Of a DNA stretch of 64,000 nucleotides, positions 9,822-57,044 are shown one piece after another. Made by a program: the position numbers and the translations under genes. This DNA is from Minisyncoccia bacterium. Its GTDB lineage: Bacteria; Patescibacteriota; Minisyncoccia; Phycocordibacterales; CAIZLB01. The notes under the pieces are model-generated. The model was not told the origin of the DNA. It ran no database searches and was given only the letters and a program-made list of their open reading frames with translations. Position 1 is the stretch's first letter, and every line of letters starts with the position of its first letter. Location of the stretch: NCBI GenBank assembly GCA_041752275.1, contig JBGSHK010000015.1:64641-128640 (forward strand), read 5' to 3'.

Positions 9822-9879
9822 AAAGTGGTATAATTAATTTATAAAATCTTTAAAATAATTTTAAATAAAATAATATAAT

Positions 9880-10281
9880 ATGACACTTGGATATACAGAC
9901 GGCAAAACCAAAATAAAAGTATTTTTATTAATATTTGGATTGATAAGTATATCCACACTCACAGTTTTTGAGTTAAGAAAAGTTATAGCGGGACCTAAAC
10001 TTATATTGAACTGTTCTGAAAGTATAGACAAAAAAAATGATTGCGGTTATATACAAAGTGATGAAAACATATACAAAATATCAGGAAAAACTAAAAATGT
10101 ATCTAATATAATTATAGGTGATAGGAAAATATATATAGATACAGAAGGAAATTTTCAGGAAGATATAGTACTCTACCCTGGTACAAATCTATTAACAATA
10201 AAATCAACTGACAGATTTGGTAAAGAAGTCAAGAAAGATATTAGTATATACTATAGTGGTAAGCTAAGTATCTCAAAATAA
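9880..10281 (+). CDS. hypothetical membrane-anchored protein
   Basis: 133 aa with an N-terminal TM (VFLLIFGLISISTLTVF); no recognisable motif. Confidence 0.35.
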   Translation: MTLGYTDGKTKIKVFLLIFGLISISTLTVFELRKVIAGPKLILNCSESIDKKNDCGYIQSDENIYKISGKTKNVSNIIIGDRKIYIDTEGNFQEDIVLYPGTNLLTIKSTDRFGKEVKKDISIYYSGKLSISK

Positions 10282-10315
10282 TTATAAAAGTTAATAAATA
10301 ATACAAAAATACAAT

Positions 10316-11428
10316 ATGGCAAAAATGGTAAAAAAACAAAAATCTGAACCTGAAGAAGATGAAGATTTATTAGAGGGTGAAGAAGATGATACAGTAGACT
10401 CTGACACAGGAGTAAAATCCAAGAAAGGTAAAAAAGGGTCTAAAGATACTGATTCTTCTATACTTGATACTATAGCTGAGATTAAAAGTCGTTTCGGTGA
10501 AGAGTCCATCATGAAGCTTGGTGAAAAACCTCGGTTAAATGTAGATGTTGTTTCAACTGGTTCTATAGGTTTAGACGCTGCGCTCGGTGTAGGTGGTTTA
10601 CCAAAGGGGCGTATTATAGAAATATTTGGACCCGAGTCTTCAGGTAAAACAACACTTGCACTTCATGTGATAGCAGAGTCTCAGAAAAAAGGTGGTGTAT
10701 GTGCATACATAGACGCAGAACATGCTATGGATCCTGACTATGCAGGAAAGCTTGGTGTAAATATAAACAACCTGCTTATATCGCAACCTGATGCTGGAGA
10801 GCAGGCTCTTGAGATAACAGAGAGTCTTGTTCGAAGTGGTAAGATAGATGTTATAGTTATAGACTCTGTGGCAGCTCTAACACCCAAAGACGAGATCGAG
10901 GGAGATATGGGTGCACATCATGTTGGTAAACAAGCAAGACTAATGTCACAGGCACTTAGAAAACTTACAGCTATCACAGCTAAAAGCGGAACTATAGTTA
11001 TCTTTATAAATCAAATACGTATGCAGATAGGTGTTATGTTTGGTAACCCGGAAACTACACCAGGTGGAAAAGCTTTAAAGTTTTATACTTCTGTTAGACT
11101 TGATATCAGACGTATAGCTCAGATCAAAAAAGGAGAAGATATAATGGGAGGACGTGTTCGAGTTAAGGTTGTAAAAAACAAAGTCGCTGCCCCGTTTAAA
11201 CAAACTGAGTTTGACCTAATGTATAACGAAGGTATATCACTTGAAGGTGAAATGATAGCTCTAGGTGAGAAGATGAAACTGATCACAAAAAGTGGATCAT
11301 CATATGCATATGGTGATATAAAACTAGGCCGAGGGTATGATGCAACGAGACAGTTTTTGAAAGAAAAAGAAAACAAGGCAGTTAAGGATAAGATACTTAA
11401 GGAGATAAGGGATCAGTTGAAAGAATAA
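10316..11428 (+). CDS. recA: recombinase RecA (with acidic N-terminal extension)
   Basis: Walker [14 protein letters not shown]1/L2 loop regions and an overall RecA core; about 60 extra acidic N-terminal residues. Confidence 0.9.
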
Positions 11429-20758: not shown

Positions 20759-23700
20759 TTAAGCTTTATTTACTATAATTTCAAAATCATCTGATTGTGT
20801 TATTTGTATATCATTAGAATTTACAGATTGTTTTATCATATCTATATATACTGAAATATCTTCTTTTATTTTTATTGTTAAATTTATTTTGTCTAAAGGA
20901 ACAAGATTTAATTCTTTTCTCTTTGACTGTATTTCTCTAATTATATCCCTAACTAGACCCTCCACTCTCAGGTCTTCGGTTATGTTTGTATCTAATGCAA
21001 CTTCATCGCCTTCTGTTATGTTTTTGACATTTAATTCATCTTTTATAATATCCGTATAAATATTTTCAATAATTTCTTTTGATACAGATACGGACTCTAA
21101 AGGCTGTCTTACTTTTATACCCGCTTTATTTCGCAAAGCTAAACCTTGCTCTATTATTTGGCGAGTTTTTGACATTTTCTCAAGTACTGAAACATCTTGT
21201 ATATCTTTAAAATCTGGCCAGTTTTCTAGGTGAACAGATTCTTTTATATCTTTTACTTTGGCAAAATCTTTTATAAAAAGATATATCTCCTCAGCCATAA
21301 AGGGTGTAAACGGAGCTATAACTTTAGATAAATTTAATAAAATAATCAAAAGATTTTTAGTAACTATCGAAGCGTCTCCTTCTTCGTCTTTAAAACGATC
21401 ACGACAACGGCGAAGATACCAAGTCGAAAGCTCTTCAACAAAATCCAATATAGGTTTTGCAGCTCTGTCTGTTTGATAAATATCCAAGTTCTCTGTCGCG
21501 TCTTTTATAAGAGTATTGAGTTTTATATCTATCCACGCATCCAACTCATTTTTATTTGAAAAATCGTTTTCAAGATTTATATCAAGATTTTTAACGCCAT
21601 ACATTTCTAAAAATGAAATAGTATTTGAAATCTTATTGAAAAACTTATTATTTATCTCGTTCAACATCTTTTGTGAAAATGCATATTCCTCGGCTCGAGT
21701 CACGGGAGATGAGAGTAAGAAATATCGAAGTGAGTCGGCCCCAAACTCCTCTACTACAGGCACAAGCTCGGCATAGTTACCTAAACTCTTAGACATCTTT
21801 TTACCGTCCTCAGCCAAAACCATACCACTTACTATTACATTTTTAAACGGAGCCTTATCAAATAAAGCCGCTGACATAAATAACATATAGTAAAACCAGC
21901 CACGAGTTTGATCCAAACTCTCAGCTACAAAGTCTACTGTAAGGTTTTGCTTAAAATCTTTTTGCTCTGACTCGTTAAAATCAAATGGATAATGAACAGA
22001 TGAAAAAGGCATTGACCCAGCATCATACCAAACATCAAGTACTTCAGATAATCTTGTATATGTTTCCCCATTTTCCACAAAAACAACTTCATCTATATGT
22101 GGTCTGTGAAAATCAAGCTCGTACTCAGTGTTGTGTGGTATGAATGCAAAATCTATCTTTGCATACTCAGAAGGTTTTGTTTTTTTATAAACTTTTTTTT
22201 CTTTTATTATATCTTCAAGATTATTACCGTCGGCAATATGATGAGTATTGTATACACAACCTTCATGGGTAACTATTAATATATTTTTATCTTTATTTTC
22301 TTTATCTGTTTCATATAAGAACTCGGCAACTCGTTTTTTTACATCGAGAAGACTTTCACCTTTTGGAAATGATTTACTAAACTTTTCTGATATATTTATT
22401 GCATATGTGTTATATATATCATCACCTTGACCATCCAAATCACCATATTGTTGTTCTATGAGCCTCGCATCTATTTTTATCTCTATATCTTTTCCTAATT
22501 TATCTTTTACAACTTGTTTTACTATAGCTGCAGTTTCTCTTGTTCGAACTATTGGAGAAGAATAAATCACATCTGGTATATTATTTTCTGCTATCATTTT
22601 CTCTACTGAAATACGAACATCTTCTTTTCCTTTATCGGTAAGATGATGTCGACTTGAAAACTCTAGTCCTGAACTCATAACAGATTCTATAAGATGAGTT
22701 GCCTCACCGTGTCTCATCGCTGTGTATGTATTTCTTCTTGTTTTACTTTTTATTTCATCAACTGAACCAAGACAGATATATTTATTTACAGACTCTTCAT
22801 TTGAAGACTTCCAAACTGGAAGTGGTGTTCCCCAATAGCGACTACGTGACACTGCCCAGTCACGGTTATTTTCCAACCATGAATGAAGTCTCTTATGTCC
22901 AATCTCATCTGGATACCAGTTTATACTGTTGTTTATTTCTATCATTCTATCCTTAACGGCTGTGGTTTTTATAAACCAAGATGATGTAGCATAGTTTAAC
23001 AAAGGTGTTTTACATCTCCAACAATGAGGATAACTATGAGTGTACTTTTCTTTTGCAAATAAGTACCCGTTGTGAGCAAGATATTTTATAACTTCAATAT
23101 CAGCTTTAGAGTGATCGTCTGACGGTTTTACTTGGCCAGAAAAATCTTTAACTTCAACCGCAAAGTCACCGTGAGTTGTTACATGTTTTATAACCGGCAA
23201 ACCCTCTCTTTGAGCCAGCTTCATATCATCGTCACCAAAGGCTGGAGCTATGTGTACTACACCCGTTCCGTCTGTATCAGTTACAAAATCACCGCTGTAT
23301 ATTTTCCAAGTTTTATCTGTTTTTAAATCTTGGTAATAATCAAATACAGGTTGATATGATAAACCAAGAAGCTCTTCACCTTTTATTTCTTTTATAACAG
23401 AAAATTGTTCACCTTCTTTTTTTAACGTGTCGATTTTTTCAAGAGATGATTTTAAAATAATTATTTTCTTTGAACCTGTGTCTACTTGTAAGTAACTAAA
23501 ATCTTTGTTTATTGCTAATGCCACATTTCCAGGTAGTGTCCAAGGTGTAGTTGTCCAAGCTATGATTGATGAATCTTTATATTCTCCATCAAGAATGTTG
23601 AAATATACATATTCTGAAAGATCGGCAATATCTTTATACCCCTCTGTCACCTCATAGTTTGATAACACTGTCTCACAATGCGGACACCATGGCATAATTT

Positions 23701-24208
23701 TATAGCCCTCATACACCAAACCTTTTTTGTGCAATTCTTTGAAAGCCCACAGATTTGATTCCATGAAAGATGCATCTAGTGTTCTGTAATCATTTTCCAT
23801 ATCTACCCAACGACCCAACTTTGGAATAATCTTTTTCCAGTCATCGCGAAATTTGAAAACTGAAGCTCTGGCTGTTTCGTTGAATTTTCCAACACCAAAT
23901 TCTTCAATATCTTTTTTATCTTTAAAACCTAGAGTTTTTTCTGCCAAACTTTCTATCGGTAGACCATGAGTATCCCAACCCCAAGAACGAGGTACGTTAT
24001 AGCCTCTCATGGTTTTGTAACGAGGATACATATCTTTTATGGCCGAAGGTAAGGCATTTCCAAAGTGAGGAAGACCTGTAGCATATGGAGGTCCGTCATA
24101 ATAACGAAAAACTGCTTGATCCTTATTTTTATCAAGACTTTTTTGAAAAATGTTGTTATCCTGCCAAAATTTTAGTATTGCTGATTCACGCTCATTTGGG
24201 GTTTTCAT
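20759..24208 (-). CDS. ileS: isoleucyl-tRNA synthetase with an inserted histidine-phosphatase (PGAM-family) domain
   Basis: IleRS signature GPPYATGLPHFGNAL (a HIGH-motif variant, HFGN), WGWDTHGLPIE, a CP1 editing region, DVWYDAGSMP and KMSKS (GKKMSKSLGN). Residues ~490-665 form a complete histidine phosphatase fold (RHGEATH ... SSPIVRTRETA ... IVTHEG) inserted between the WGTPLP and DVWYDAG core motifs. Confidence 0.8.
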   Translation of the reverse strand: MKTPNERESAILKFWQDNNIFQKSLDKNKDQAVFRYYDGPPYATGLPHFGNALPSAIKDMYPRYKTMRGYNVPRSWGWDTHGLPIESLAEKTLGFKDKKDIEEFGVGKFNETARASVFKFRDDWKKIIPKLGRWVDMENDYRTLDASFMESNLWAFKELHKKGLVYEGYKIMPWCPHCETVLSNYEVTEGYKDIADLSEYVYFNILDGEYKDSSIIAWTTTPWTLPGNVALAINKDFSYLQVDTGSKKIIILKSSLEKIDTLKKEGEQFSVIKEIKGEELLGLSYQPVFDYYQDLKTDKTWKIYSGDFVTDTDGTGVVHIAPAFGDDDMKLAQREGLPVIKHVTTHGDFAVEVKDFSGQVKPSDDHSKADIEVIKYLAHNGYLFAKEKYTHSYPHCWRCKTPLLNYATSSWFIKTTAVKDRMIEINNSINWYPDEIGHKRLHSWLENNRDWAVSRSRYWGTPLPVWKSSNEESVNKYICLGSVDEIKSKTRRNTYTAMRHGEATHLIESVMSSGLEFSSRHHLTDKGKEDVRISVEKMIAENNIPDVIYSSPIVRTRETAAIVKQVVKDKLGKDIEIKIDARLIEQQYGDLDGQGDDIYNTYAINISEKFSKSFPKGESLLDVKKRVAEFLYETDKENKDKNILIVTHEGCVYNTHHIADGNNLEDIIKEKKVYKKTKPSEYAKIDFAFIPHNTEYELDFHRPHIDEVVFVENGETYTRLSEVLDVWYDAGSMPFSSVHYPFDFNESEQKDFKQNLTVDFVAESLDQTRGWFYYMLFMSAALFDKAPFKNVIVSGMVLAEDGKKMSKSLGNYAELVPVVEEFGADSLRYFLLSSPVTRAEEYAFSQKMLNEINNKFFNKISNTISFLEMYGVKNLDINLENDFSNKNELDAWIDIKLNTLIKDATENLDIYQTDRAAKPILDFVEELSTWYLRRCRDRFKDEEGDASIVTKNLLIILLNLSKVIAPFTPFMAEEIYLFIKDFAKVKDIKESVHLENWPDFKDIQDVSVLEKMSKTRQIIEQGLALRNKAGIKVRQPLESVSVSKEIIENIYTDIIKDELNVKNITEGDEVALDTNITEDLRVEGLVRDIIREIQSKRKELNLVPLDKINLTIKIKEDISVYIDMIKQSVNSNDIQITQSDDFEIIVNKA

Positions 24209-35067: not shown

Positions 35068-35649
35068 TTATTCAGTCATTTCTTTTTCGTTTTTAATAAT
35101 ATTTCCACTATGGCTTATAACTCCTTGCTTGATCAAAAAATCTGAAAGTTTGTTTGCCAAGTTTTTATCTATAAGAGGAATAAGATTTGTTTTTTCATCT
35201 TCAAAATTATCAAGTCTTGATGTTGTTATATCAAGTTTAGATAAACCAAATAATCTATAGTGATAAGGTCTATCTATATCTACGTTTTGTATATGTCTAT
35301 ATGGTATAACTTTTTCTTTTACCATAAATATTCCTCTTCTTATATGAAAAGAATGTTCCCCTAATAAAAACTTATGTTGTATATGCATTTCAAAAGCTGA
35401 GACAAAAATAAGAATAATAATACTCAAAAGAAGTGAAATAAACCAAAGGTTTAACATACCTACAGTAACAATGGTATTGAAACCGGACCACCATGTGTAG
35501 AAACTATCTGTGTTTATAAGATATATAATAGAAGAAAACAAAATAATCCATAAAAAGGGTTTAAGTCCATTTTTTAACATTAAAAAAAAGAAAACCTGTT
35601 TACCAAAAGTATACTTTTTATTTAAAACTAATTCTTCTTGTTTTTTCAT
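35068..35649 (-). CDS. membrane protein with bacterial PH (bPH_2/DUF304, YdbS-like) domain
   Basis: Two TMs followed by a bPH_2-like segment (HIRRGIFMVKEKVIPYRHIQNVDIDRPYHYRLFGLSKLDITTS); the first 16 codons of the tracked ORF are a read-through of the adjacent tRNA and were trimmed. Confidence 0.5.
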   Translation of the reverse strand: MKKQEELVLNKKYTFGKQVFFFLMLKNGLKPFLWIILFSSIIYLINTDSFYTWWSGFNTIVTVGMLNLWFISLLLSIIILIFVSAFEMHIQHKFLLGEHSFHIRRGIFMVKEKVIPYRHIQNVDIDRPYHYRLFGLSKLDITTSRLDNFEDEKTNLIPLIDKNLANKLSDFLIKQGVISHSGNIIKNEKEMTE

Positions 35650-35650
35650 T

Positions 35651-35733
35651 TGCGCTGGGGGAGATTTGAACTCCCACACCCTTGCGGGCGCTACCACTAA
35701 AAGGTAGTAAGTCTACCTTTTCATTACCTGCGC
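35651..35733 (-). tRNA. type-II (long variable arm) Leu-like tRNA with anticodon UUA (would read UAA/UAG); possible suppressor or pseudo-tRNA
   Basis: Minus strand: acceptor GCGCAGG/CCAGCGC (one A-A mismatch), discriminator A73, Leu-like D-loop AAAAGGTAGA, anticodon stem CTACC/GGTAG with loop TTTTAGT (U33, anticodon 34-36 = TTA), long variable arm CGCCC-GCAA-GGGTG, canonical T-arm GGGAG-TTCAAAT-CTCCC. Confidence 0.45.
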
Positions 35734-35800: not shown

Positions 35801-35873
35801 GCGCGATTAGCTCAGTTGGTAGAGCAACTCATTTACACTGAGAAGGTCGGGGGTTCAAGTCCCTCATCGCGCA
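35801..35873 (+). tRNA. tRNA-Val (anticodon UAC)
   Basis: Acceptor GCGCGAT/ATCGCGC, D-arm GCTC-AGTTGGTA-GAGC, anticodon loop TTTACAC, T-arm GGGGG-TTCAAGT-CCCTC, discriminator A. Confidence 0.8.
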
Positions 35874-35880
35874 CAAACAG

Positions 35881-35909
35881 AAAAAAGCCCACTAGGGCTT
35901 TTTTATTTT
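35881..35909 (+). terminator. rho-independent terminator after tRNA-Val (a second hairpin at 35918-35942)
   Basis: aaaaaagccc-acta-gggctttttt, followed by gcgcc-cgac-ggcgc-tttt. Confidence 0.55.
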
Positions 35910-35944
35910 GAAGCGATAAAAAGCGCCCGACGGCGCTTTTGTGT

Positions 35945-36030
35945 GGGACTTGAAAAGCTTTCCCTTATTTTTGAGAATCTTGATTCGAAAAAATGGGAAA
36001 GGTATACTGACCGTGTAACGGTCAAGTCCC
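35945..36030 (+). repeat. structured repeat element, copy A (T-arm-mimicking closing helix specific for tRNA-Val)
   Basis: gggacttga...tcaagtccc closing helix; the 3' strand equals the T-loop/T-stem of tRNA-Val 75 nt upstream. Conserved core CGAAAAGC-stem-TTTTGAG-...-CGAAAAA-stem-GGTATACTGA-hairpin(TGTAA loop). Confidence 0.6.
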
Positions 36031-36099
36031 CAATAAAGTACAAAAAAACAGAGCTCCTGAGAGCTCCATTTTTCTAAGTTAAAATATTTTCTCTAATAT

Positions 36100-43526: not shown

Positions 43527-43613
43527 GGAGGAGTGGCAGAGAGGTCGATTGCACCTGTCTTGAAAACAGGAGGGCTCTAACGGGTCCCGTGAGTTCGAAT
43601 CTCACCTCCTCCG
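43527..43613 (+). tRNA. tRNA-Ser (anticodon UGA)
   Basis: Acceptor GGAGGAG/CTCCTCC, anticodon stem CCTGT/ACAGG with loop CTTGAAA, long variable arm, T-arm GTGAG-TTCGAAT-CTCAC, discriminator G. Confidence 0.8.
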
Positions 43614-45071
43614 CACGGTAAGACTATCAGCTTGATTTAACATCAAATTGAATGGAGAACGCAAGGTAAAACCTAGCGTTTTTTCATTTAATACACAGTT
43701 CTGAAGTAAGAAACCAAGAAATTGGCGCTTTTCTTCAACTTCGGAACTAATAAATATCTCTTTTGCTCGTTTTGCTATATTTAATGTTGTATTTGCTGTG
43801 ATATAGAAGTGTTCGTCCGCATCAGAGTGGTCCTTCATTTGGTCCAACACATCAGCTTGTTTCTCTTTGTACTCTTTCAAAAAGCTGTCATACATTTCAT
43901 CCGTAATACGACCGTCGAGCTTATCTTCATACATCTTCTTTATCCTTGCTTCATATTTATCGTGTTCAGTCTTGAGTGAGTTTATGCTTTGTCGGTAAAA
44001 TCTATTTTCATTTTCACCAATCTCCTTCAACGCTTCGGTAATTTCACCAATCTTTTTATCTGAAAGCTTGAAATCGAGCGCTTTGTAAACCTGCTCCAAA
44101 AGCATATCTTCAGTTACAGAGACCCTTTTACAGTCTTTGTACCCTGAACAACTGTAGTAGGTATATTTTTCTTTTTTAAGTTGCCCACCAATTACACCTC
44201 CACATTTAGCACATACAATAAGACCCCTAAAGATAAAAGGTTTTGAAGCATACTTTGTGGGAACTTTATTATGTCTTTCCATTACCTCTTGGCATTTATC
44301 AAACAGTTCCTTTGAAATAATTGGTTTATAAGCATGTCTGTACCGTAAATCATGAGTTCTTGAGTAGGCATAACCATAGTAAAAACTATCATTCAATATC
44401 TTGAATATCATAGCTTGATTTACCCTTTCATTGACCCTGCTTCTAAAACCTATTTTATACATTCTATCAGCGAGGGTTTTTACAGACACATCACCTTTCG
44501 CATATTCCTCAAAGATACGAACTATGAAATGAGCCTTGTCATCAGGCACCACATCAATCCTACGCATCCTTAATGGATTATCATTATACAAACTCTTGTA
44601 GCCAATGGCTGGCATTCCCGTAATTTCACCATCCTCTCTCATTTTGTCGTGTTTTCGTTTAAGGTTATCACTCAATTGCAACACATAACTTTTAGCAAAC
44701 ATAACGCCCATATCCCAACGCAATATATCAGCACTGTTTGACTTCTTATTTATAACAAGATTTTCTCTATAAAAATGCAACTCAACTTTATCTTCCCTTC
44801 GTAACTCGTCAAAGATAACACTCTCGCGAAAACTTCTTTGTAATCGGTCTACAGTATCCACAACAACAGCTATGGTTTCTTTTGACTTTTTTATTATTTC
44901 AATAATTTCTTGAAACTTTATTCTATACCCTTTCGTTGAACTTTCTTTCAGTTTAAATGTTTTCCACTCTTCCAAACCCTTACCTTTAACATAATCAAGG
45001 ATACGGGACAGCTGTGCATCATTACTATCTTGGTTTTTGTCACTTTCTCTGGCTAAAATAATTGCTTTCAT
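43602..45071 (-). CDS. large serine recombinase (phage-integrase-type resolvase/recombinase with zinc ribbon)
   Basis: N-terminal resolvase domain with a catalytic Ser (AIILARESDKNQDS), a central recombinase domain and a C-terminal Cys-rich zinc ribbon (CAKCGGVIGG...YYSCSGYKDC); the stop codon overlaps the tRNA-Ser 3' end by 12 nt. Confidence 0.85.
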   Translation of the reverse strand: MKAIILARESDKNQDSNDAQLSRILDYVKGKGLEEWKTFKLKESSTKGYRIKFQEIIEIIKKSKETIAVVVDTVDRLQRSFRESVIFDELRREDKVELHFYRENLVINKKSNSADILRWDMGVMFAKSYVLQLSDNLKRKHDKMREDGEITGMPAIGYKSLYNDNPLRMRRIDVVPDDKAHFIVRIFEEYAKGDVSVKTLADRMYKIGFRSRVNERVNQAMIFKILNDSFYYGYAYSRTHDLRYRHAYKPIISKELFDKCQEVMERHNKVPTKYASKPFIFRGLIVCAKCGGVIGGQLKKEKYTYYSCSGYKDCKRVSVTEDMLLEQVYKALDFKLSDKKIGEITEALKEIGENENRFYRQSINSLKTEHDKYEARIKKMYEDKLDGRITDEMYDSFLKEYKEKQADVLDQMKDHSDADEHFYITANTTLNIAKRAKEIFISSEVEEKRQFLGFLLQNCVLNEKTLGFTLRSPFNLMLNQADSLTVRRR

Positions 45072-45535
45072 TTGAATAGTGATATTATTGAAATAATAAT
45101 TGCAATTAAAGATAAAATCAGCGTTACAGGATTTTCTGTTGCTTTGTTTTTAAAATACTCCCAACCACTTTTTCCTTTAGTTGTTAATACAATACTTTCG
45201 GTTAACTCTTCAGTTACATCATAACTAAAGCTTGAGCCATTTTTTGTTTCTATTACTGGAAATGTTTTTTGAGTGCCAATAACTATTAAACCATCTAATT
45301 CCATTCTTTTTAATTCAAACATTATTTCATTTTTCCAACTCAACTCAAAAATACCATCAGGAGAATATACGGGGTATTTATCATCATATTTTTTTATGAT
45401 AAACCCATAATCAGGAAAAACTAAAGGGTCTTCAGATATAGATTGGTATTCTTCAGGGATTTCAAAGAGATATTCACTCCTAGATATTTTACTACCTTCT
45501 AACTCTTTTAATAATTTTATAAGTCTATTCCTCAT
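45068..45535 (-). CDS. hypothetical protein with C-terminal TM, translationally coupled to the recombinase
   Basis: 155 aa; 4-nt overlap with the recombinase start; C-terminal hydrophobic helix. Confidence 0.35.
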   Translation of the reverse strand: MRNRLIKLLKELEGSKISRSEYLFEIPEEYQSISEDPLVFPDYGFIIKKYDDKYPVYSPDGIFELSWKNEIMFELKRMELDGLIVIGTQKTFPVIETKNGSSFSYDVTEELTESIVLTTKGKSGWEYFKNKATENPVTLILSLIAIIISIISLFK

Positions 45536-45543
45536 ATAGCAGT

Positions 45544-45723
45544 TTATTTTGTAGTACTTAATTTATTCAAAAAGGCTTCAAAGTCCGTCTTCTCTATACG
45601 AAACTCTTTGCCTATTTTATATGCTTTTAATTTCTTTGCATCAATGTAACGATAAATAGTCATTATATTGAAGCCTAGCTTTTCTGCTAAATCTTTAGCT
45701 GTGTAGAAGTCTTTTTCTTTCAT
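45544..45723 (-). CDS. excisionase-family/MerR-like HTH DNA-binding protein (putative Xis)
   Basis: 59-aa ORF below the ORF-track cutoff (MKEKDFYTAKDLAEKLGFNIMTIYRYIDAKKLKAYKIGKEFRIEKTDFEAFLNKLSTTK); matches the excisionase-type HTH pattern. Confidence 0.5.
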   Translation of the reverse strand: MKEKDFYTAKDLAEKLGFNIMTIYRYIDAKKLKAYKIGKEFRIEKTDFEAFLNKLSTTK

Positions 45724-45750
45724 AATTTATTTTTATATTATTGTTATTAA

Positions 45751-46905
45751 TTATACTTTACTATTCTTTACATTGCAATCTTCAATGTCGGACAACCTGA
45801 AAGGTTTAAAATCATCAATAGCATCCTTTATTTGTCTTACCCAGTCGTGGTATGTTTTACCAGAAATCTCGTCTAGGAGCTTCAAATCATCAGCTATACG
45901 ATACCAAGTCCTAGATGTTGCGTATCTCTCAACCACAGCCCTAATATCCCTTATTCCCTCCTTACTTAAGACCCTTAGTCCTACTAGATACAGTGCATCT
46001 TTAGGTTTTGTATCAGGTCTGTTTTTAAAGATTGCTTCTAGTGTCTTTTTGGGATTACTTTCAACATCAAATAAGAATAGATTTTTCCCTGTTATTAACT
46101 CATCCCAATAATTTATCAATATCTTCTGACAAACATCCTTCTTGAATATATCAGCAAAAGTTGGATTTTCTTTCAACCCTAAACCCTTAAGAATTGCATT
46201 CATTTTTACCTTTTTTGTAAGTCTAGCTTCAATACGCAACACTTCTTTTTTATCTTTTTTTGTCAAAGTTTCAAAGAGTGATAGTTGAAGTGGATTTTGA
46301 TCCTTATCAATAGCTCGCTTATTACCTTTCTTTAGATCCTGAACTTTATCATACACAACAAGAGAATGAGAGTTTGTATAGAACTGAAGTGAGTGACCGT
46401 TATTCCTAAAACTATCTTTATTAAGATCCATTTTCTGACTTACATCAATCTTATGTAATTCGTTAATAACAAAACCAGAAGTATATCCTTTTGTAAACTC
46501 TATGTTCTTTGAGGGGTGAAAGACCGACACTTTTGCATTTCTTAAATCTTCTAATTTAACGTATACAAACATTTCAGTCATTGCTTCTTGTAGATTTACA
46601 ATTACCCTTTCAAAATCTTTTTCTTGGACCTCGTCAACATTGTTTCCATAAGCCATTTTTGCTACAGAAAACTCTATTTTGAGCGGTATTTCATTACCGT
46701 TTTTTGTCGGTCTTTTCATCAGTGTAATTCTTGGTTTGTAAAAACCTTCTTTCTTATCTGTGGCGGTAGGATTATTTACACATTTAATGAGATAATTTCC
46801 TGACATTTTAAGAATATTCGCATTAGGAGTAAAAGCTTCGGGTCGAAGTCTATAGTAGCCTCTCGGTATCGTTAATATTACTGTGTCTAGCATATACATT
46901 TTCAT
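45751..46905 (-). CDS. putative replication initiation protein (Rep_trans-like)
   Basis: 384 aa; the segment HSLQFYTNSHSLVVYDKVQDL resembles the Rep_trans active-site RxYDK region; the mobile-element context fits. Confidence 0.35.
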   Translation of the reverse strand: MKMYMLDTVILTIPRGYYRLRPEAFTPNANILKMSGNYLIKCVNNPTATDKKEGFYKPRITLMKRPTKNGNEIPLKIEFSVAKMAYGNNVDEVQEKDFERVIVNLQEAMTEMFVYVKLEDLRNAKVSVFHPSKNIEFTKGYTSGFVINELHKIDVSQKMDLNKDSFRNNGHSLQFYTNSHSLVVYDKVQDLKKGNKRAIDKDQNPLQLSLFETLTKKDKKEVLRIEARLTKKVKMNAILKGLGLKENPTFADIFKKDVCQKILINYWDELITGKNLFLFDVESNPKKTLEAIFKNRPDTKPKDALYLVGLRVLSKEGIRDIRAVVERYATSRTWYRIADDLKLLDEISGKTYHDWVRQIKDAIDDFKPFRLSDIEDCNVKNSKV

Positions 46906-47182
46906 TACTTATTTTATTTTTATAAATCAAAACCTCTTCTGCTTTTGTTATAATTGCCTGTTCAATATCCAAAGCAATCTTTCTGTTTATCGGATGAAAA
47001 ACATTGAAGTTTTTACCGTTCAGGTTTTTGGTCGGATAAGTTACTCGATATCCACTTCCATCTAATTTTGTATGAATACCGATTGAGCCAAGATACAGAC
47101 TATTCTCAATAACTAAACTTGCTATAGCTACAAGTCCATTATTTGGCTTTATTGGTATTATTTGTATTTCTGTTATTTTCAT
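46850..47182 (-). CDS. SpoVG-family protein
   Basis: MKITEIQIIPIKPNNGLVAIASLVIENSLYLGSIGIH...FHPINRKIALDIEQAII aligns with SpoVG (AIAS...HPIN) conserved blocks. Confidence 0.55.
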   Translation of the reverse strand: MKITEIQIIPIKPNNGLVAIASLVIENSLYLGSIGIHTKLDGSGYRVTYPTKNLNGKNFNVFHPINRKIALDIEQAIITKAEEVLIYKNKISNENVYARHSNINDTERLL

Positions 47183-47384
47183 ATAGATGTGGATTTACTC
47201 TTTTATCAACCTTCAACAACAATGCGAAAAAACCAAGTAGGTTGTTTCGGTCTATTTCGTTGAGTTCTTTCAACGACCAGTCCTTCTTTATTTCTTTTTT
47301 GTTATTGTTTTCGGACATAAAAAAACCTGTAAGGGTGTCTTACAGATTAATTTAATTGATGTTTACAAAAGTTTGTAAACTTTT

Positions 47385-48959
47385 CTAGGGTTTCAAATAC
47401 TTCTTATTTATGGATATTGATTTAGTAGTAATATCCAGAAAATCCTTGATTTTTGTATCTTGAGCTATGATACTGTTAACCTTTTTACCTGCCTGATAAA
47501 CCTTATTTTCAGAGACCTTTTCGCCAAACTTATAACCCCAATCATCAATTACCTCGTCATTTGCCCATATCTTATTTTCATCCTTGAACAAGGTCCTCAT
47601 CAGCTTATGAGGGTCGCTTTCTTCCTTTTTTGATATAAGTATTTCTTCATTGTTAAATGAAAGTTTACGTGTATTTTCATCAAACGAAAGCGATGACGGG
47701 TTCTTGATTTCTTTTTTTTCCTTACCTTGTTTCAGTCTAATCGTAAACAGAAAACCTCTATCGTATAAATCAAACATCTGTTTTGGACCGTATGAAAAAT
47801 CTTCGATTTCAAGATAGCCATCTTTTTCGAGAGATAACATTGTATGGACAAATAAAAACAAATTAATAGTGTCGTTTTTATTATTTCTGCTTATTTTAAA
47901 AGTATCATTTGTATCATTTCCAATGTATTCTGGTTCAAAATATGGATGACCTATTTCCAAATCATCTCTTTGATACTCTTCATATTTTTCTTGAATATGC
48001 TTTATCAAAATATCCCTTTGTTTTTTAAAACCAAAAAATTGAGTGTGCAATTGCAAAGATAAACCTTCAGAAAAGAAAGTTCCTGTTAAGCCCTTTTTAC
48101 TTAAACCGTGCAAATTATCATTAATGAAAGCTGTAAGATACTCATCTAGATACTTTTCTATTTTATCTGTTTTCTTTATAAATAAACCAAAATTAGTATA
48201 TTCAAAAATCAGTCTTGATAATTTTTGTTGACTATCTTCATGAAGAAAGTTTTCTGCTGTAAAACCACCTTTCTTTAGCTTTTCTCTATTATGTTTATAA
48301 AACATTAATAAAAACTTTTCTATATCTTCTGTATTCCATTTACCGCCGTCATATTCAGGTACTAATTTGTGGACCAACTCAATAAAATCTTCATCAGCTT
48401 GTTTGTCTAGTATTGCATCTCTATATTCTTTTACTGGCTGATGCTCAAGTTCAGAAAACTTACTATTATCAAAATCATCATCTTTTAACATGTTTTCAAG
48501 AAAAGCTCTTTGCTCATTACTCAAGCTACCGTATTTTTCAACATCGTTTCTATTCTCTTCGGTATCTTCAAGATATTCCTTCATTAATCTCCCTGAATAT
48601 TCAGATAAAAAACCTCCCTCAAGCAGACTGTAGTCAGCATCGCCATACACCAAGAAACTTTCTTCGTCGAGTTCTTTTCCTGTATTTAATAGGTAGTTAA
48701 GAATTGTAGGAGACCCTGTTTTGTCATGTATCCTTTGAGTCGATTGCTTAATGGCTTTATTTATATCATCTTCAATTGTTGCAATATCACTAGGATTTTT
48801 TGGTTCAGAGACAAAAACATGCTTACCATCAAGAGTAAAAACATTACTCCATAGTGTTGAAATATGCTTCTTTTTTAGTATCCAATAAAGAATGAAAAGT
48901 TCCTTTTCATTTAGGTAGTTTTTATCTTTGTTTTCTAAATCGATTGTCCAACTGTTCAT
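47385..48959 (-). CDS. hypothetical 524-aa cargo protein of the integrated element
   Basis: Long soluble, acidic protein with no recognisable catalytic motif; the largest gene inside the island. Confidence 0.35.
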   Translation of the reverse strand: MNSWTIDLENKDKNYLNEKELFILYWILKKKHISTLWSNVFTLDGKHVFVSEPKNPSDIATIEDDINKAIKQSTQRIHDKTGSPTILNYLLNTGKELDEESFLVYGDADYSLLEGGFLSEYSGRLMKEYLEDTEENRNDVEKYGSLSNEQRAFLENMLKDDDFDNSKFSELEHQPVKEYRDAILDKQADEDFIELVHKLVPEYDGGKWNTEDIEKFLLMFYKHNREKLKKGGFTAENFLHEDSQQKLSRLIFEYTNFGLFIKKTDKIEKYLDEYLTAFINDNLHGLSKKGLTGTFFSEGLSLQLHTQFFGFKKQRDILIKHIQEKYEEYQRDDLEIGHPYFEPEYIGNDTNDTFKISRNNKNDTINLFLFVHTMLSLEKDGYLEIEDFSYGPKQMFDLYDRGFLFTIRLKQGKEKKEIKNPSSLSFDENTRKLSFNNEEILISKKEESDPHKLMRTLFKDENKIWANDEVIDDWGYKFGEKVSENKVYQAGKKVNSIIAQDTKIKDFLDITTKSISINKKYLKP

Positions 48960-49030
48960 ACGCTTTACTTTACTTTACATTCCAATATAATTCAACGATA
49001 TATAGAAAAAGTTTTAGATTGTTCAATCAA

Positions 49031-49390
49031 TTATTTAACAGTTTTCTTTTTGAAGATTTGGCGTGTCATCAACCCTAATATAACAATACTGAAAAAAACA
49101 CTAATCTGAACATAGTAATTGGTCAGAGTCGCATAACTAGATAAATAAAACACTGCGACAAAAATACAATAATGCCACCATTTTGGCTTAATACTGTTTG
49201 GATTATTCTTACCTTTAGAGTAAAGCAACGCCATTCCCAACATAAGTATGACCATTACAACAATGACACCTAATCCTAATATCTTTTGCGTAGTGACATC
49301 CAACGAGTTACCTTCTAACATTGTTGCCAACGTCGCAATCCATCTGTAGTTTAGAACTATTAATAATATTAGGTAATTTCCCAATGGCAT
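49031..49390 (-). CDS. hypothetical membrane protein (3-4 TM)
   Basis: Hydrophobic profile only. Confidence 0.3.
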   Translation of the reverse strand: MPLGNYLILLIVLNYRWIATLATMLEGNSLDVTTQKILGLGVIVVMVILMLGMALLYSKGKNNPNSIKPKWWHYCIFVAVFYLSSYATLTNYYVQISVFFSIVILGLMTRQIFKKKTVK

Positions 49391-49506
49391 ATCTGTATAA
49401 TATCACCATATTTAATGATTTGCATCAAAATGCACTTTGGTTTACTTTTACTTTGGTATGTATTAAGTTATAATACCATTATTACTTTTAATCATAAAAA
49501 AATATT

Positions 49507-49965
49507 ATGGACACAATCCAAACGCCTAATCAGGCAACACCAATCATTAAAAAAAAATCTATATGGTCAACATTGATATGGATTGGTTACTTTATATCCA
49601 TGCTAGCGACACTTTCTAATTTTTTCCTTTTTCTAACATTAAGAATAACGGATGGTAAGGACATTATAACCTCATCAGATGGTACAAGTATTAGCTTGAA
49701 TGCGTCATTAATAGCCACTGCCATTACTTTAATAATTTATTCAATTTTAACTGTATATTGTATAAAAAGAAAAAAGTCTACCTTAAAACTGTTGCCTGTG
49801 CTTGAGGTTATTTTATATTTTGTAGGTATTGCAAGTGCCATAATAATTTTTCAACTAAATGACTTATCAATGGCATATCTTCTTGGACCGATAATAAGTG
49901 GTTTAATAAGACCAGCAATAGCGATATTTGTTATGTATAAAAACAAAGCTGATTACATTTCGTAA
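49507..49965 (+). CDS. hypothetical membrane protein (4 TM)
   Basis: Hydrophobic profile only. Confidence 0.3.
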   Translation: MDTIQTPNQATPIIKKKSIWSTLIWIGYFISMLATLSNFFLFLTLRITDGKDIITSSDGTSISLNASLIATAITLIIYSILTVYCIKRKKSTLKLLPVLEVILYFVGIASAIIIFQLNDLSMAYLLGPIISGLIRPAIAIFVMYKNKADYIS

Positions 49966-50159
49966 AACTGGCATTATTTTTAAAGCCTATAACAGTATTA
50001 GAACTGTATACGTACCTAAACAGTCGCATATAGTTTTTTTATTCCCAGAAATCCCAATTCTTGCTTAACGGCCGTCCAATTCACAGTTCTGAACGCATCT
50101 ACCCACTCCCGCTATGAGAAAATGAATACATACTTGTTATGTATTCATTTTTGATTATA

Positions 50160-50203
50160 GGAGGAGAGGAGGCCGACAGTTTTGCTTCCGTGTGAGATTC
50201 GAA
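50160..50203 (+). pseudogene. degenerate tRNA-Ser fragment (acceptor/D-region fused to the T-arm 5' half) at the right end of the island
   Basis: ggaggagaggaggccgacag...ccgtgtgagattcgaa versus tRNA-Ser GGAGGAGTGGCAGAGAGGTCGA...CCCGTGAGTTCGAA; the anticodon arm is missing. Confidence 0.45.
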
Positions 50204-50277
50204 AAGCTTTTCTATGTTTTGAGCGCTGTGGTGCGAAAAACGAGAAAAGGTATACTGAAGCTGTAAGCTTCGAATCT
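50195..50277 (+). repeat. structured repeat element, copy B (closing helix agattcgaa/ttcgaatct mimicking the tRNA-Ser T-loop)
   Basis: Same conserved core as copy A (cgaaaagcttttc...ttttgag...cgaaaaa...gagaaaaggtatactga-gaagc-tgtaa-gcttc); inserted in the T-loop position of the degenerate tRNA-Ser fragment. Confidence 0.6.
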
Positions 50278-50296
50278 ATCGTGCTATAATAACCCC

Positions 50297-55424: not shown

Positions 55425-55450
55425 GGTGTTTTGAGGTATATTGTGTAAAT

Positions 55451-55522
55451 GCTCCCGTCGTTTAATGGATAGGACATGACTTTGCGGAAGTCAAGATCTA
55501 GGTTCGATTCCTAGCAGGAGCA
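55451..55522 (+). tRNA. tRNA-Arg (anticodon GCG, unusual G34), with 3-bp D-stem
   Basis: Acceptor GCTCCCG/CAGGAGC (one mismatch), anticodon stem TGACT/AGTCA with loop TTGCGGA, T-arm CTAGG-TTCGATT-CCTAG, discriminator A. Confidence 0.55.
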
Positions 55523-55566
55523 CAAATTATTACTACATGTGTAAGTTAAAAAATCCGGAGGATTTT

Positions 55567-55667
55567 TAGGAATCGAAAGGGTTATCCTATATTTTCGAGC
55601 AGCTTTGCTGTAAGAAAATAGGAAACCCGTACTGAACTCGTAGAGTTCGATTCCTAGCAGGAACACA
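55567..55667 (+). repeat. structured repeat element, copy C, fused to a partial tRNA-Arg 3'-end copy
   Basis: Closing helix taggaatcgaa/ttcgattccta, then cctagcaggaacaca (T-stem 3' + acceptor 3' + ACA of tRNA-Arg, 1 mismatch); conserved core with covarying stems (gggtta-cct/aggaaaccc, gaactc-gta-gagttc). Confidence 0.6.
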
Positions 55668-55671
55668 AGAG

Positions 55672-55697
55672 AAAAATCACCCTTTGTGGTGATTTTT
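55672..55697 (+). terminator. rho-independent terminator (aaaaatcacc-ctttg-tggtgattttt)
   Basis: Perfect hairpin with a T-run, sitting between repeat copies C and D. Confidence 0.55.
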
Positions 55698-55737
55698 CGA
55701 TTTGTGGTTCTGAGCAAGCAAACTGCTTTGCTTGCGT

Positions 55738-55840
55738 CTAGGAATCGAAAAGTTTTGTGATGTTTTTGAGAATTTGCAAAATTCGAAAAAACCACAAAGG
55801 TGTACTGGTCCTGTAAGGACCGATTCCTAGCAGGAGCACA
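55738..55840 (+). repeat. structured repeat element, copy D, fused to a partial tRNA-Arg 3'-end copy
   Basis: Closing helix ctaggaatcg/cgattcctag, then caggagcaca identical to the tRNA-Arg 3' end; core cgaaaagttttgtg...tttttgag...cgaaaaaa-cacaaaggtgtactgg-tcc-tgtaa-gga. Confidence 0.6.
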
Positions 55841-55845
55841 GTAAG

Positions 55846-55869
55846 AAAAACACCCGAAAGGGTGATTTT
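55846..55869 (+). terminator. rho-independent terminator (aaaaacaccc-gaaa-gggtgatttt)
   Basis: Perfect hairpin with a T-run directly after copy D, upstream of pyrD. Confidence 0.55.
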
Positions 55870-55904
55870 CTGTGCGAGTGGAGTGAGCCGAGTATCTCAA
55901 AATA

Positions 55905-57044
55905 TTGTATAATCAAAATATGTACGAAATATTCACCAGAACCCGAAATAAAACAATCTCGATAATATATAAATATCTATTAAAACCCATCTTCTTTCGC
56001 TTCGACCCTGAAGATGTGCACGATCACATGATTAAAACAGGTGAATTTTTCGGTAGATTTTCATTAACAAGAAAACTATTATCTCTTACTTTCAACTATA
56101 AAAATCCTATACTAAGTCAAAACATATTAGGCTTAAACTTCGTAAACCCCATCGGCCTCTCAGCTGGTTTTGATAAAAACGCAGAGCTAACACAACTTTT
56201 ACCATCTATTGGTTTTGGCTTCATTGAAGTTGGATCTATCACAGGTGAACCATGTCCCGGTAACCCAAAGCCAAGATTATGGAGACTCCCCCTTTCAAAA
56301 AGTCTTATAGTGTACTATGGACTTAAAAATGATGGTGCTGAAATTATTTCCAAAAGACTTAAAAATAAAAAAACATCTATACCTCTTGGTATAAATATAG
56401 CAATGACAAATTGCCAAAAAAACATAGACATAAATAACGCAATACAAGATTATAAAAAAGCTTTCGAGTTGATGGAAGAATCAGCTAACTACATAACTAT
56501 AAACATATCTTGCCCCAACACTCTTAGTGATCAGCCTTTTACAGACAATAAAAACCTAGATAATCTTTTAACGGTATTAGATAAAGTTGAAACAACAAAA
56601 CCAATTTTTGTAAAACTATCACCTGATCTAAAACATGAAGAGATAGACAATATATTAGAAACACTTAAAAATCACAGAGTGCATGGTATCATTTGCAGTA
56701 ATCTAACCAAAAATAGAAATAACAATAAAATAATAGAAAAAAACATATCCCTCAAAGGAGGCTTGAGTGGCAAAGTTGTTCAGGATTTGTCAGATAACCT
56801 ACTGTCTTACATTTATAAAAAAGAAGGAAAAAGGTTTTTACTTATAGGTACAGGAGGAATATTTACAGCAGAAGATGTATATAAAAAGATAAAAAATGGG
56901 GCATCTCTTGTGCAACTTATAACAGGAATGATATATCAAGGACCACAACTTATAAGTACATTAAATCAGGAGTTAGCTGTATTATTACAAAACGATGGTT
57001 ATAAAAATATAAGTGAAGCAATCGGCACAAATGTGCTAAAATAA
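55905..57044 (+). CDS. pyrD: dihydroorotate dehydrogenase (quinone), class 2
   Basis: N-terminal membrane-association region and class-2 motifs (GLNFVNPIGLSAGFDKN, IEVGSITGEPCPGNPKPRLWRL). Confidence 0.85.
   Translation: MYNQNMYEIFTRTRNKTISIIYKYLLKPIFFRFDPEDVHDHMIKTGEFFGRFSLTRKLLSLTFNYKNPILSQNILGLNFVNPIGLSAGFDKNAELTQLLPSIGFGFIEVGSITGEPCPGNPKPRLWRLPLSKSLIVYYGLKNDGAEIISKRLKNKKTSIPLGINIAMTNCQKNIDINNAIQDYKKAFELMEESANYITINISCPNTLSDQPFTDNKNLDNLLTVLDKVETTKPIFVKLSPDLKHEEIDNILETLKNHRVHGIICSNLTKNRNNNKIIEKNISLKGGLSGKVVQDLSDNLLSYIYKKEGKRFLLIGTGGIFTAEDVYKKIKNGASLVQLITGMIYQGPQLISTLNQELAVLLQNDGYKNISEAIGTNVLK

Follow-up and report, generated by a model that had tools for sequence, protein, structure and literature searches.

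The window analysed here, a 64,000-nt stretch of contig JBGSHK010000015.1 from a Minisyncoccia bacterium, carries an intact tRNA-Arg(GCG) gene at 55451-55522 on the + strand (ARAGORN; Rfam, 55.6 bits), with the gene of a conserved 160-aa protein upstream and that of PyrD downstream. Between tRNA-Arg and PyrD, the 3' end of the tRNA recurs twice. Our analysis revealed that each recurrence is part of a structured unit of about 94 nt, and that such units recur beside tRNAs for Arg, Val, Ser and Leu and in two classes of Patescibacteria. The two copies form strands of P1, the closing helix of the units, and the apparent partial 3' ends of tRNA-Arg are therefore built-in strands of two units and not scars of attachment (att) sites.

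The first-pass annotation of this DNA had described two downstream copies of the tRNA-Arg 3' end, each preceded by a structured repeat and followed by a terminator, and all of these features proved to be real. The sequence from the T-loop of tRNA-Arg to its 3' end, TTCGATTCCTAGCAGGAGCA, is the source of the copies in both units. Its 19-mer GATTCCTAGCAGGRRCACA occurs three times in the window, at 55506-55524 (inside tRNA-Arg), 55649-55667 and 55822-55840, against an expectation of 0.00 copies in 100 shuffles. The first downstream copy resembles tRNA-Arg from G53/U54 onward (GTTCGATTCC..., 96% over 24 nt), the second from C56 only (CGATTCC...). Repeat searches for direct and inverted pairs located the right arm and tail of unit 1, GTTCGATTCCTAGCAGGAACACA, at 55645-55667 (+), where it corresponds to tRNA-Arg from G53 to 2 nt beyond the discriminator with one mismatch (A70). 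The right arm and tail of unit 2, CGATTCCTAGCAGGAGCACA (55821-55840, +; repeat search), are identical with tRNA-Arg from C56 to 2 nt beyond the discriminator. After unit 1 stands an intrinsic-terminator-like hairpin with an 11-bp stem and A/T on both flanks (55671-55698, +), and after unit 2 the terminator T2 (55846-55869, core 55851-55864, +), identified by the inverted-pair and terminator search. A further hairpin read from the sequence, AAAAATCC-gga-GGATTTTT (55549-55567, +), lies between tRNA-Arg and unit 1 and is also present in the related loci L009, L023 and L018; it looks like the terminator of tRNA-Arg, and it directly adjoins unit 1 at the place where other units carry the hairpin P0. 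The intervals between the Arg repeats measure 120-150 nt and contain no credible open reading frame (ORF). No integrase, integrase fragment or other cargo was found between or beside the repeats, and a Pfam scan of nearly all window ORFs of at least 120 aa revealed no integrase within 10 kb of the locus.

Both structured repeats fold alike, with z scores of -5 to -7.5 relative to shuffles, into a three-way junction whose core spans 55564-55658 (+) in unit 1 (-38 kcal/mol, z = -5.7) and 55736-55831 (+) in unit 2 (-39.8 kcal/mol, z = -5.0). In each Arg unit, the string (C/T)TAGGAATCGAA stands about 70 nt upstream of the tRNA-like copy, and the TAGGAATCGAA arm is the exact reverse complement of the tRNA-Arg T-loop and T-stem 3' strand, so that arm and copy are inverted repeats. 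RNA folding pairs this antisense arm with the tRNA-like copy, which becomes the 3' strand of P1; the 5' strand is TAGGAATCGAA at 55567-55577 in unit 1 and CTAGGAATCGAA at 55738-55749 in unit 2. Inside P1 follow, in order, an A-rich strand J12, an interrupted hairpin of about 21 bp (P2), a single-stranded GUACUG and a 6-bp hairpin (P3), whose loop contains GUA and which abuts the P1 3' strand without a spacer in all units; the junction strands are AAAAG, GUACU and zero nt. The P2 and P3 sequences differ between units 1 and 2, and their shapes are equal. The copied tRNA segment runs from C56 of the T-loop through the T-stem 3' strand, to which full units add the acceptor 3' strand and ACA; in the Arg units, a single-stranded tail, GCAGGARCACA, follows P1 and is itself followed by the terminator.

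Full modules contain an additional acceptor-like stem and the side hairpin P0. In unit 2, P0 (GCAAGCAAA-ctgc-TTTGCTTGC, 55714-55735, +; an inverted pair) is preceded by CUGA, and its 3' strand together with the following bases (GCTTGCGTC) resembles the tRNA acceptor 5' strand, that is, the complement of the acceptor 3' strand. The sequence 'gcttgcg tc tagg' (55730-55742) had been read as resembling the acceptor 5' strand plus nt 8-9 and standing just before the T-stem copy. Its likeness to the acceptor strand stands, with an exact GCTCCCGTC in L037, but its position does not: it lies about 80 nt upstream of the T-stem copy, on the 5' side of unit 2, and consists of the P0 3' strand followed by the first bases of the helix in which the T-loop copy is paired. 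In this predicted fold, P3 would stack directly on P1, as the T arm does on the acceptor stem, and the full module resembles a tRNA acceptor/T-stem minihelix in which the T-loop is replaced by a junction; the units contain the hairpin stacked without a spacer on a closing helix, the continuous 3' strand and the single-stranded 3' end of such a minihelix.

An alignment of 11 units from the window and related loci served to build a covariance model, R1. Applied to the 64 kb, R1 identified exactly four units, also with its filters off: unit 1 (90.5 bits, E = 5e-20), unit 2 (97.9 bits), and two others, the fourth of which was absent from the training set. The Val unit (35941-36033, +; 97.3 bits; fold z = -6.9) lies downstream of tRNA-Val(TAC) (35801-35874). 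The T-loop/T-stem of that tRNA, TTCAAGTCCC, has its reverse complement in the left arm of the unit, GGGACTTGAA; the right arm is CAAGTCCC. A terminator (35881-35905) and a P0 hairpin (~35919-35940) precede the unit, and another terminator (~36042-36074) follows it. The fourth, Ser-type unit (50190-50281, +; 76.1 bits, E = 2e-16 to 8e-16) has a left arm, GTGAGATTCGAA (50192-50203), that k-mer comparison matched to tRNA-Ser(TGA) as the reverse complement of its T-loop/T-stem, and a right arm CGAATCT; ahead of it lie GGAGGAG (50160-50166), which equals the acceptor 5' strand of tRNA-Ser(TGA), and a small hairpin. The cognate tRNA-Ser(TGA) (43527-43614, +; ARAGORN and Rfam) is about 6.6 kb away, with a large serine recombinase (LSR) gene and ORFs without Pfam matches in between.

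In all four units of the window, P1 agrees with the T-loop of the unit's own tRNA (Arg, Arg, Val, Ser), and the anti-T-loops found across tRNAs (AATCGAA, ACTTGAA, ATTCGAA and ACTCGAA) are exact complements of their respective T-loops. Terminators follow three of the four. The acceptor 3' copy is missing from both the Val and the Ser-type unit; what looked like a partial 3' end of the tRNA is therefore a variable extension, and the constant feature is a helix derived from the T-loop region of the neighbouring tRNA. The antisense (left) arm is never degenerate, with 9-18 nt of perfect complementarity, and the sense arm sometimes decays in a wobble-compatible manner, as in the Val and Leu units of L008 and in L041.

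The fold is supported by covariation. RNAalifold predicted 28 pairs for the 11 units, 19 of them with compensatory changes. In the R1 structure, 92.2% of the pair cells are paired, versus 74.3% in shuffles and 30-59% with slid partners, and 20 of its 29 pairs have changed on both sides; none of 500 shuffles reached any of these measures. The P0 helix covaries as well (GGGAGCGAA/TTCGCTCCC, GCAAGCAAA/TTTGCTTGC, GCAAGCCGA/TCGGCTTGC), and the orthologues of unit 2 in L019, L037 and L041 show compensatory changes. A scan of the window at gathering thresholds against Rfam 15, whose families cover tRNA-like RNAs, Y RNA, self-cleaving ribozymes and group I introns, returned tRNAs only, permissive scans of three unit regions gave chance-level matches, and blastn found no match to the region among INPHARED phages or PLSDB plasmids. 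With no Rfam match and no description found in literature searches, the element looks undescribed.

Units outside the window were found by several routes. A 19-mer scan of species genomes led to L008 and L009, and syntenic Arg loci were fetched through the conserved upstream 160-aa protein, for which there were 97 homologues. L009, from a close relative (a metagenome-assembled genome, MAG, labelled Ca. Nomurabacteria), has the same tRNA and unit 1, lacks unit 2 and has another downstream gene. On L008, a 4.8-kb contig of a Saccharibacteria MAG, units follow all three tRNAs. Two of them stand after tRNA-Arg(TCT), with tails that match its own acceptor (CAGGGACACA); a unit with left arm GAGGACTCGAA follows a 5'-truncated copy of tRNA-Leu; and the left arm of the unit after tRNA-Val, GGCGATGAGGGATTCGAA, repeats 18 nt of the tRNA 3' end in inverted form without a mismatch. 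Among viral contigs, a scan with a degenerate core pattern gave 80 loci, of which R1 kept one, L061 (an IMG/VR contig), where a complete module follows tRNA-Ser(GCT). This module comprises a complement of the acceptor 3' strand and discriminator, P0, the left arm, the core and a perfect 16-nt copy of the tRNA 3' strand, and it folds into an 8-bp acceptor-like stem, P0, P1, P2 and P3. Viral scans with exact P3 strings gave no match, and a metagenome scan with a unit-specific pattern returned only two chance matches (L015 and L016). The standard unit length is 93-96 nt in both Patescibacteria classes. The distribution within Patescibacteria is patchy, since R1 detected no unit at three other loci (L005, L010 and L012).

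Comparison of the window with L009 and L023 revealed 78% identity in the upstream gene, 80% in the promoter region, 100% in the tRNA, 93% in the spacer and hairpin and 95.6% in the unit core; between the window and L009, homology continues through the tail and ends about 5 nt beyond it. The units have a G+C content of 39-46%, versus about 30% in the genome. On the tRNA-sense strand, the ratio of G·U to A·C cells is about 15 to 4, and R1 scores reach 76-105 bits, versus about 13 bits on the opposite strand. In all cases examined, the units are co-oriented with their cognate tRNA wherever it is nearby. Because of this conservation, base composition, G·U bias, strand-specific scoring and co-orientation, the structure appears to be selected on the tRNA-sense strand, most simply as RNA.

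The first-pass annotation had proposed comparing the locus across relatives for presence or absence of each unit; this comparison showed that the locus is not invariant and holds zero, one or two units. No unit is present in L021, which has the tRNA and a terminator, or in L024, where 3 nt separate the tRNA from the start of PyrD. L009, L023 and L018 carry a single unit with a tail, and a single unit without tail or terminator is present in L019, L037, L036 and L043, in which T2 directly follows the tRNA and the unit stops at CGATTCC just before the PyrD promoter; L036 and L043 have one additional hairpin. A truncated unit remnant is found in L028, and two units occupy the Arg locus of the window. 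Modules are also shuffled between loci. L018 is a mosaic, with an upstream hairpin and P3 of the unit-1 type and P2 of the unit-2 type. The flanking protein is the same in L037 and L041 and their left halves are identical; from GUACUG onward, downstream DNA included, the two loci differ. The T2 block 'GCACA-GTAAGAAAAAC...' directly follows the tRNA in L019 and L037 and follows unit 2 in the window. On L008, the sequence past the last tail repeats the sequence past tRNA-Arg.

The tRNA itself may carry a trace of these exchanges. The acceptor stem of tRNA-Arg(GCG) contains a C6·A67 mismatch, flagged by Rfam as a non-canonical pair, and all nine unit-bearing loci with a GCTCCCG-type tRNA (the window, L009, L023, L019, L036, L037, L041, L042 and L043) combine it with a CAGGAGC 3' strand, giving C6·A67. 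The acceptor stems of the unit-free L021 (GCTCCCG/CGGGAGC) and L024 (GCTCCTG/CAGGAGC) are perfectly paired, and in L018 the tRNA retains CGGGAGC while the tail of its unit reads CAGGAGC. Judged from these sequences, the simplest reading would be that a unit-borne CAGGAGC strand was copied onto the tRNA; C6·A67 could instead be a lineage trait. Since copy number varies, modules are shuffled and the tRNA carries C6·A67, recombination at the tRNA-Arg repeats is real, and the locus is a recombination hot spot. An inversion switch, with the tRNA 3' end and the left arm as inverted sites, was considered and rejected: at no locus was the segment between them seen in inverted orientation.

Several observations concern the ends of contigs and other tRNA-Arg loci. 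L008 repeats, at 4787-4821, the 38 nt that follow its tRNA-Arg, and the contig ends there; the same-strain contig L017 stops in the T-loop at position 3558. Arrays of this kind evidently break short-read assemblies and may exceed the assembled length. In a Falkowbacteria MAG (L012, 286-325), a partial copy of the T-arm and acceptor, GGGGTTCAATTCCTACCGAGAGCACA, lies 12 nt after tRNA-Arg(GCG). This copy resembles the tRNA-Arg allele of another lineage (L028), a hint that Patescibacteria commonly exchange the 3' ends of their tRNAs.

Taken together, we favour, with moderate confidence, the reading that the units are a conserved, multi-copy, tRNA-linked family of structured, minihelix-like RNAs whose arrays are remodelled by recombination. 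Most probably the element gives rise to an RNA of tRNA-sense polarity. The units would be made by read-through from the tRNA promoter, by processing, or by both, and RNase P, RNase Z and the CCA-adding enzyme may treat them like tRNA-type minihelices. Given the repeats of 7-24 nt common to the tRNA and the units, homologous or unequal recombination and gene conversion among them could expand, contract and shuffle the arrays, and the same exchange may have placed the unit-type CAGGAGC strand on the tRNA.

Several points weigh against this reading. Its main weakness is the strong-looking terminator between each tRNA and its unit; because this terminator precedes the units and no convincing promoter was seen ahead of them, we can only infer transcription. 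The covariation rests on few sequences, 11 in all, with some kinship among them. Folded single-stranded DNA tolerates G·T pairs too, so the strand bias is compatible with a role at the DNA level. Homology between genomes breaks at or near the units, and the block made of the tRNA 3' end and T2 moves, both of which are also expected of a cassette-like mobile element. By itself, an RNA model leaves unexplained why P1 copies the neighbouring tRNA and why the antisense arm stays perfect when the sense arm decays.

We consider it unlikely that the units are instead tiny, cargo-less integrative cassettes acting at the DNA level, whose folded arms rebuild the T-loop duplex of the tRNA and recombine with the T-loop of the tRNA gene. 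That the mobile unit itself might be tiny had been offered in the first-pass annotation as an alternative to deleted islands, and it is possible. The module, existing as a circle or a single strand, would begin with a copied tRNA 3' end, followed by a terminator, P0, the left arm, the core and the right arm, and the array would grow with every event by a unit and a further tRNA 3' end copy, the newest beside the tRNA. Much of the Arg locus fits this scheme: the tandem units are each followed by a tRNA 3' copy, the last of which carries T2 as the tRNA does in L019 and L037; the sequence past the last copy in L008 equals that past the tRNA; relatives hold zero, one or two units; the tRNA-proximal block of unit 1 is 93-96% identical against 78% for the flanking gene; the tRNA acceptor is chimeric; only one strand folds well; and the same-strain contig L017 breaks in the T-loop. 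Other observations speak against it. About half of the units lack the tRNA tail that a T-loop crossover should leave (L019, L037, L036, L043, and the Val and Ser units of the window), and the homology between the window and L009 runs through the tail and 5 nt further instead of stopping at the supposed crossover. The scheme predicts that the distal copy should fit the tRNA 5' strand better than the 3' strand of the tRNA itself; in L018, where the distal copy is CAGGAGC, the opposite holds. A single att specificity cannot account for a P1 tailored to four different tRNAs. Moreover, the 64 kb contain no tyrosine recombinase or integron integrase, their sole recombinase being the LSR 10 kb away at tRNA-Ser, and the phage, plasmid and viral collections searched hold no copies except L061.

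More doubtful still is the proposal that a selfish core of about 75 nt with a generic anti-T-loop at its 5' end, comparable to an intron or a MITE (a miniature transposable element with inverted repeats), inserted into the T-loop of duplicated tRNA genes, and that the disrupted copy has since been decaying. Collapse of the D and anticodon arms to P0 and erosion of the acceptor strands would leave the order acceptor 5', P0, T-stem 5', core, T-loop/T-stem 3' and acceptor 3', and the full modules do read as a tRNA in which nt ~9-55 are replaced, for instance GCTCCCG-T-CTGGG... (L037), GGAGGAG-P0-GTGAG... (50160-50203) and GCTCTCG-P0-GTAGG... (L028). Tandem, co-oriented units beside their cognate tRNA, the 5'-truncated tRNA-Leu copy next to a unit in L008, a core that is homologous everywhere between tRNA-specific arms, and the patchy occurrence, with none in L005, L010 and L012, would all follow. 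The left arms, however, point elsewhere. The anti-T-loop is the exact complement of each different T-loop and has therefore been copied or selected locally; the left arm of the L008 Val unit reads GAGGG, the complement of the 3' strand, and not the tRNA's own 5' GGGGG; and the left segment of L061 complements discriminator +1 as well. These last two cases indicate an inverted copy of the 3' strand rather than a relic of the 5' half. Strong conservation with compensatory change speaks for selection on the fold and not for decay, target-site duplications and conserved termini were not found, and the Pfam scan of window ORFs revealed no transposase or reverse transcriptase.

A more speculative proposal, to which we attach little credence, starts from the unfailing complementarity (9-18 nt) of the antisense arm to the T-loop/3' strand of the neighbouring tRNA: the arm would be a guide, and the family a new class of tRNA-templated guide element, as RNA or folded DNA, aimed at the tRNA gene or its transcript. 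Such a guide might direct recombination and island traffic to tRNA loci, or survey and repair tRNA 3' ends, and the sense arm would serve as a built-in auto-inhibitory decoy.

That the repeats are ordinary attL/attR scars of larger, decayed tRNA-targeting islands is highly improbable and contradicted as a full explanation: the bodies between the repeats form one conserved, covarying family, 95.6% identical between species and of fixed length (93-96 nt) in two classes, and are not unrelated or decaying DNA; each holds an inverted copy of the repeat; the Val and Ser-type units lack an acceptor copy; and no integrase fragments or cargo lie between the repeats. What such scars would explain are the direct repeats of the tRNA 3' end and their polymorphism among relatives, the foreign-allele partial 3' copies after tRNAs elsewhere in Patescibacteria (L012, L008 Leu, L061), and the recombinase-bearing islands at tRNA-Ser in the window and in L061; partial-tRNA arrays from serial integration are also documented (10.1101/2020.12.28.424599). 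The proposal of serial integration at the tRNA T-loop, made from the window sequence, thus retains its direct repeats and polymorphism but is met by no integrase or cargo at the locus and does not predict the inverted copy in each unit, and the bodies of about 100 nt, once considered as possible remnants of deleted islands, are copies of one covarying element found in two Patescibacteria classes.

If the favoured reading of a tRNA-linked RNA family is correct, Patescibacteria possess an undescribed small structured RNA family, perhaps as numerous as their tRNA genes, in which each RNA is built around a paired copy of the T-loop and 3' strand of a neighbouring tRNA. It would also supply a sequence-level cause for rearrangement hot spots at tRNA loci in these tiny genomes, as the shared repeats of 7-24 nt shuffle units, break synteny and can rewrite a tRNA acceptor strand. 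Annotators should note that an apparent partial 3' end of a tRNA need not be a scar of integration, and the covariance model R1 makes the question testable.

Other features of the window and of L061 were recorded alongside the units. The LSR gene (43602-45071, -; 489 aa; Resolvase, Recombinase and Zn_ribbon_recom domains) overlaps the 3' end of tRNA-Ser(TGA) with its last codons and is followed by four ORFs without Pfam matches (45068-49965). Since this stretch of about 6.5 kb, within a region that spans 43527-50281 overall, stands between tRNA-Ser and the cognate unit (50190-50281), it probably represents an integrated island, for which a 15/16-nt direct repeat, AAT[A/T]CACAGTTCTGAA, at 43690-43705 and 50078-50093 is a candidate att pair. 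The L061 island encodes ParB, a RelA/SpoT-like synthetase, a second LSR, a DNA methylase and a ResIII helicase as well. On the - strand of L061 (10431-10470), a 19/21-nt partial 3'-end copy follows a second tRNA-Ser, with an inverted T-loop 17 nt further on; the resulting hairpin, GTTCGAATCCC...GGGATTCGAAC, has the sense arm first and no core, and a terminator and the convergent LSR gene (9015-10370) come next. A link between units and LSRs was rejected: two unit loci lie near LSR islands, the two LSRs show no close relationship, and an LSR is lacking at the Arg locus.

At the Arg locus, a -10-like box of tRNA-Arg (tatatt) ends about 8 nt before the mature 5' end (55438-55450), and a -10 box of PyrD (tgtataat) lies about 7 nt ahead of its ATG (55899-55919). 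Since the boxes lie this close to the starts, the transcripts of tRNA-Arg and PyrD may be near-leaderless. Elsewhere, ARAGORN reported as 'tRNA-Stop' a tRNA with a long variable arm and the anticodon UUA, which would read the UAA stop codon (35651-35733, -). Rfam default filters missed it, and a permissive scan gave 40.3 bits against a gathering score of 29. It overlaps the annotated start of the ORF at 35068-35697, and as the window genes still end in TAA, it may be suppressor-like or decaying. An isoleucyl-tRNA synthetase-like protein (20759-24208, -; 1149 aa) carries an inserted histidine-phosphatase domain, His_Phos_1, at residues 498-653.

The units were further compared with known structured elements. 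Hammerhead ribozymes are three-way junctions with a CUGANGA / GAAA / H core; this core is unmatched in the units, and no rotation of the helices fits their junction strands, which, read from the sequence, do not fit other three-way-junction ribozymes or riboswitches either. A group I intron relic was rejected on unit size and the lack of an Rfam match; the tRNA introns described in Patescibacteria lie at position 35/36 and are far larger than the units (PMC13011429). A retron-like msr/msd was dismissed, as the hairpin order fits the weaker-folding strand only and no reverse transcriptase is present. Box C/D, H/ACA and k-turn identities were rejected because the tandem G·A loop of P2 is missing from the Saccharibacteria units, and a TnpB/IscB omega-RNA or an IS110 bridge RNA because the surroundings contain no gene of this kind and the arms are complementary to each other throughout.

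REP/BIME, Correia and RUP elements are structured intergenic repeats and MITEs. The units resemble them in being short, multi-copy, hairpin-rich and intergenic, often beside terminators, and in being substrates of rearrangement. Unlike them, the units have terminal inverted repeats that are copied from the adjacent tRNA rather than constant across the family, no target-site duplications were found, and their helices covary at fixed spacing as in a functional RNA; a MITE identity was rejected as the arms vary from locus to locus with the tRNA at hand, with no flanking duplication seen.

Folded single-strand recombination sites are represented by integron attC, which recombines with attI, and by the forked hairpin attP(+) of CTX-phi, used with XerCD. 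Like these, the units place two inverted arms around a variable, structured middle of about 60-140 nt, fold better on one strand, stand in an array beside a fixed site and have paired arms that mimic a duplex target. In contrast to these sites, the units lack R''/R' GTTRRRY boxes, cargo ORFs and a nearby IntI- or Xer-type gene. The attC pattern RYYYAAC ... GTTRRRY does not match the arms TAGGAATCGAA and TTCGATTCCTA, as GTTCGAT has C in place of a purine, and the Pfam scan detected no IntI-type tyrosine recombinase, only the LSR at 43602-45071. The middle of the units is a conserved three-way junction and not a simple bulged hairpin, and the better folding of one strand fits RNA equally well; their arms are tRNA-specific, and many units lack crossover products.

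Accretion arrays of cis-mobilizable elements (CIME) and integrative and conjugative elements (ICE) are built of att remnants in tandem next to integrative islands. Partial 3' ends of tRNAs likewise line up in tandem beside tycheposon islands, where they arise from serial integration (10.1101/2020.12.28.424599). Both kinds of array share with the Arg locus the tRNA 3' repeats downstream of an intact gene, variable copy number and signs of 3'-strand exchange. They differ in that the 'islands' at the Arg locus are 120-150 nt long, carry no integrase or cargo and are one structured element, and in that each unit contains an inverted copy of the repeat and many units lack an acceptor copy.

Plant mitochondrial t-elements and mascRNA are tRNA-like non-coding RNAs. 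The bacterial Y RNA YrlA is another (PMC4201824). The units share with these RNAs a predicted mimicry of the acceptor/T-stem coaxial stack, a continuous 3' strand and possible handling by tRNA-end enzymes. They differ in having no T-loop hairpin or D-arm mimic, with the T-loop bases buried in a helix, and in lacking an Rfam match and any Ro60/Rsr gene context that we could see. What each unit mimics is the sequence of the tRNA beside it rather than generic tRNA shape.

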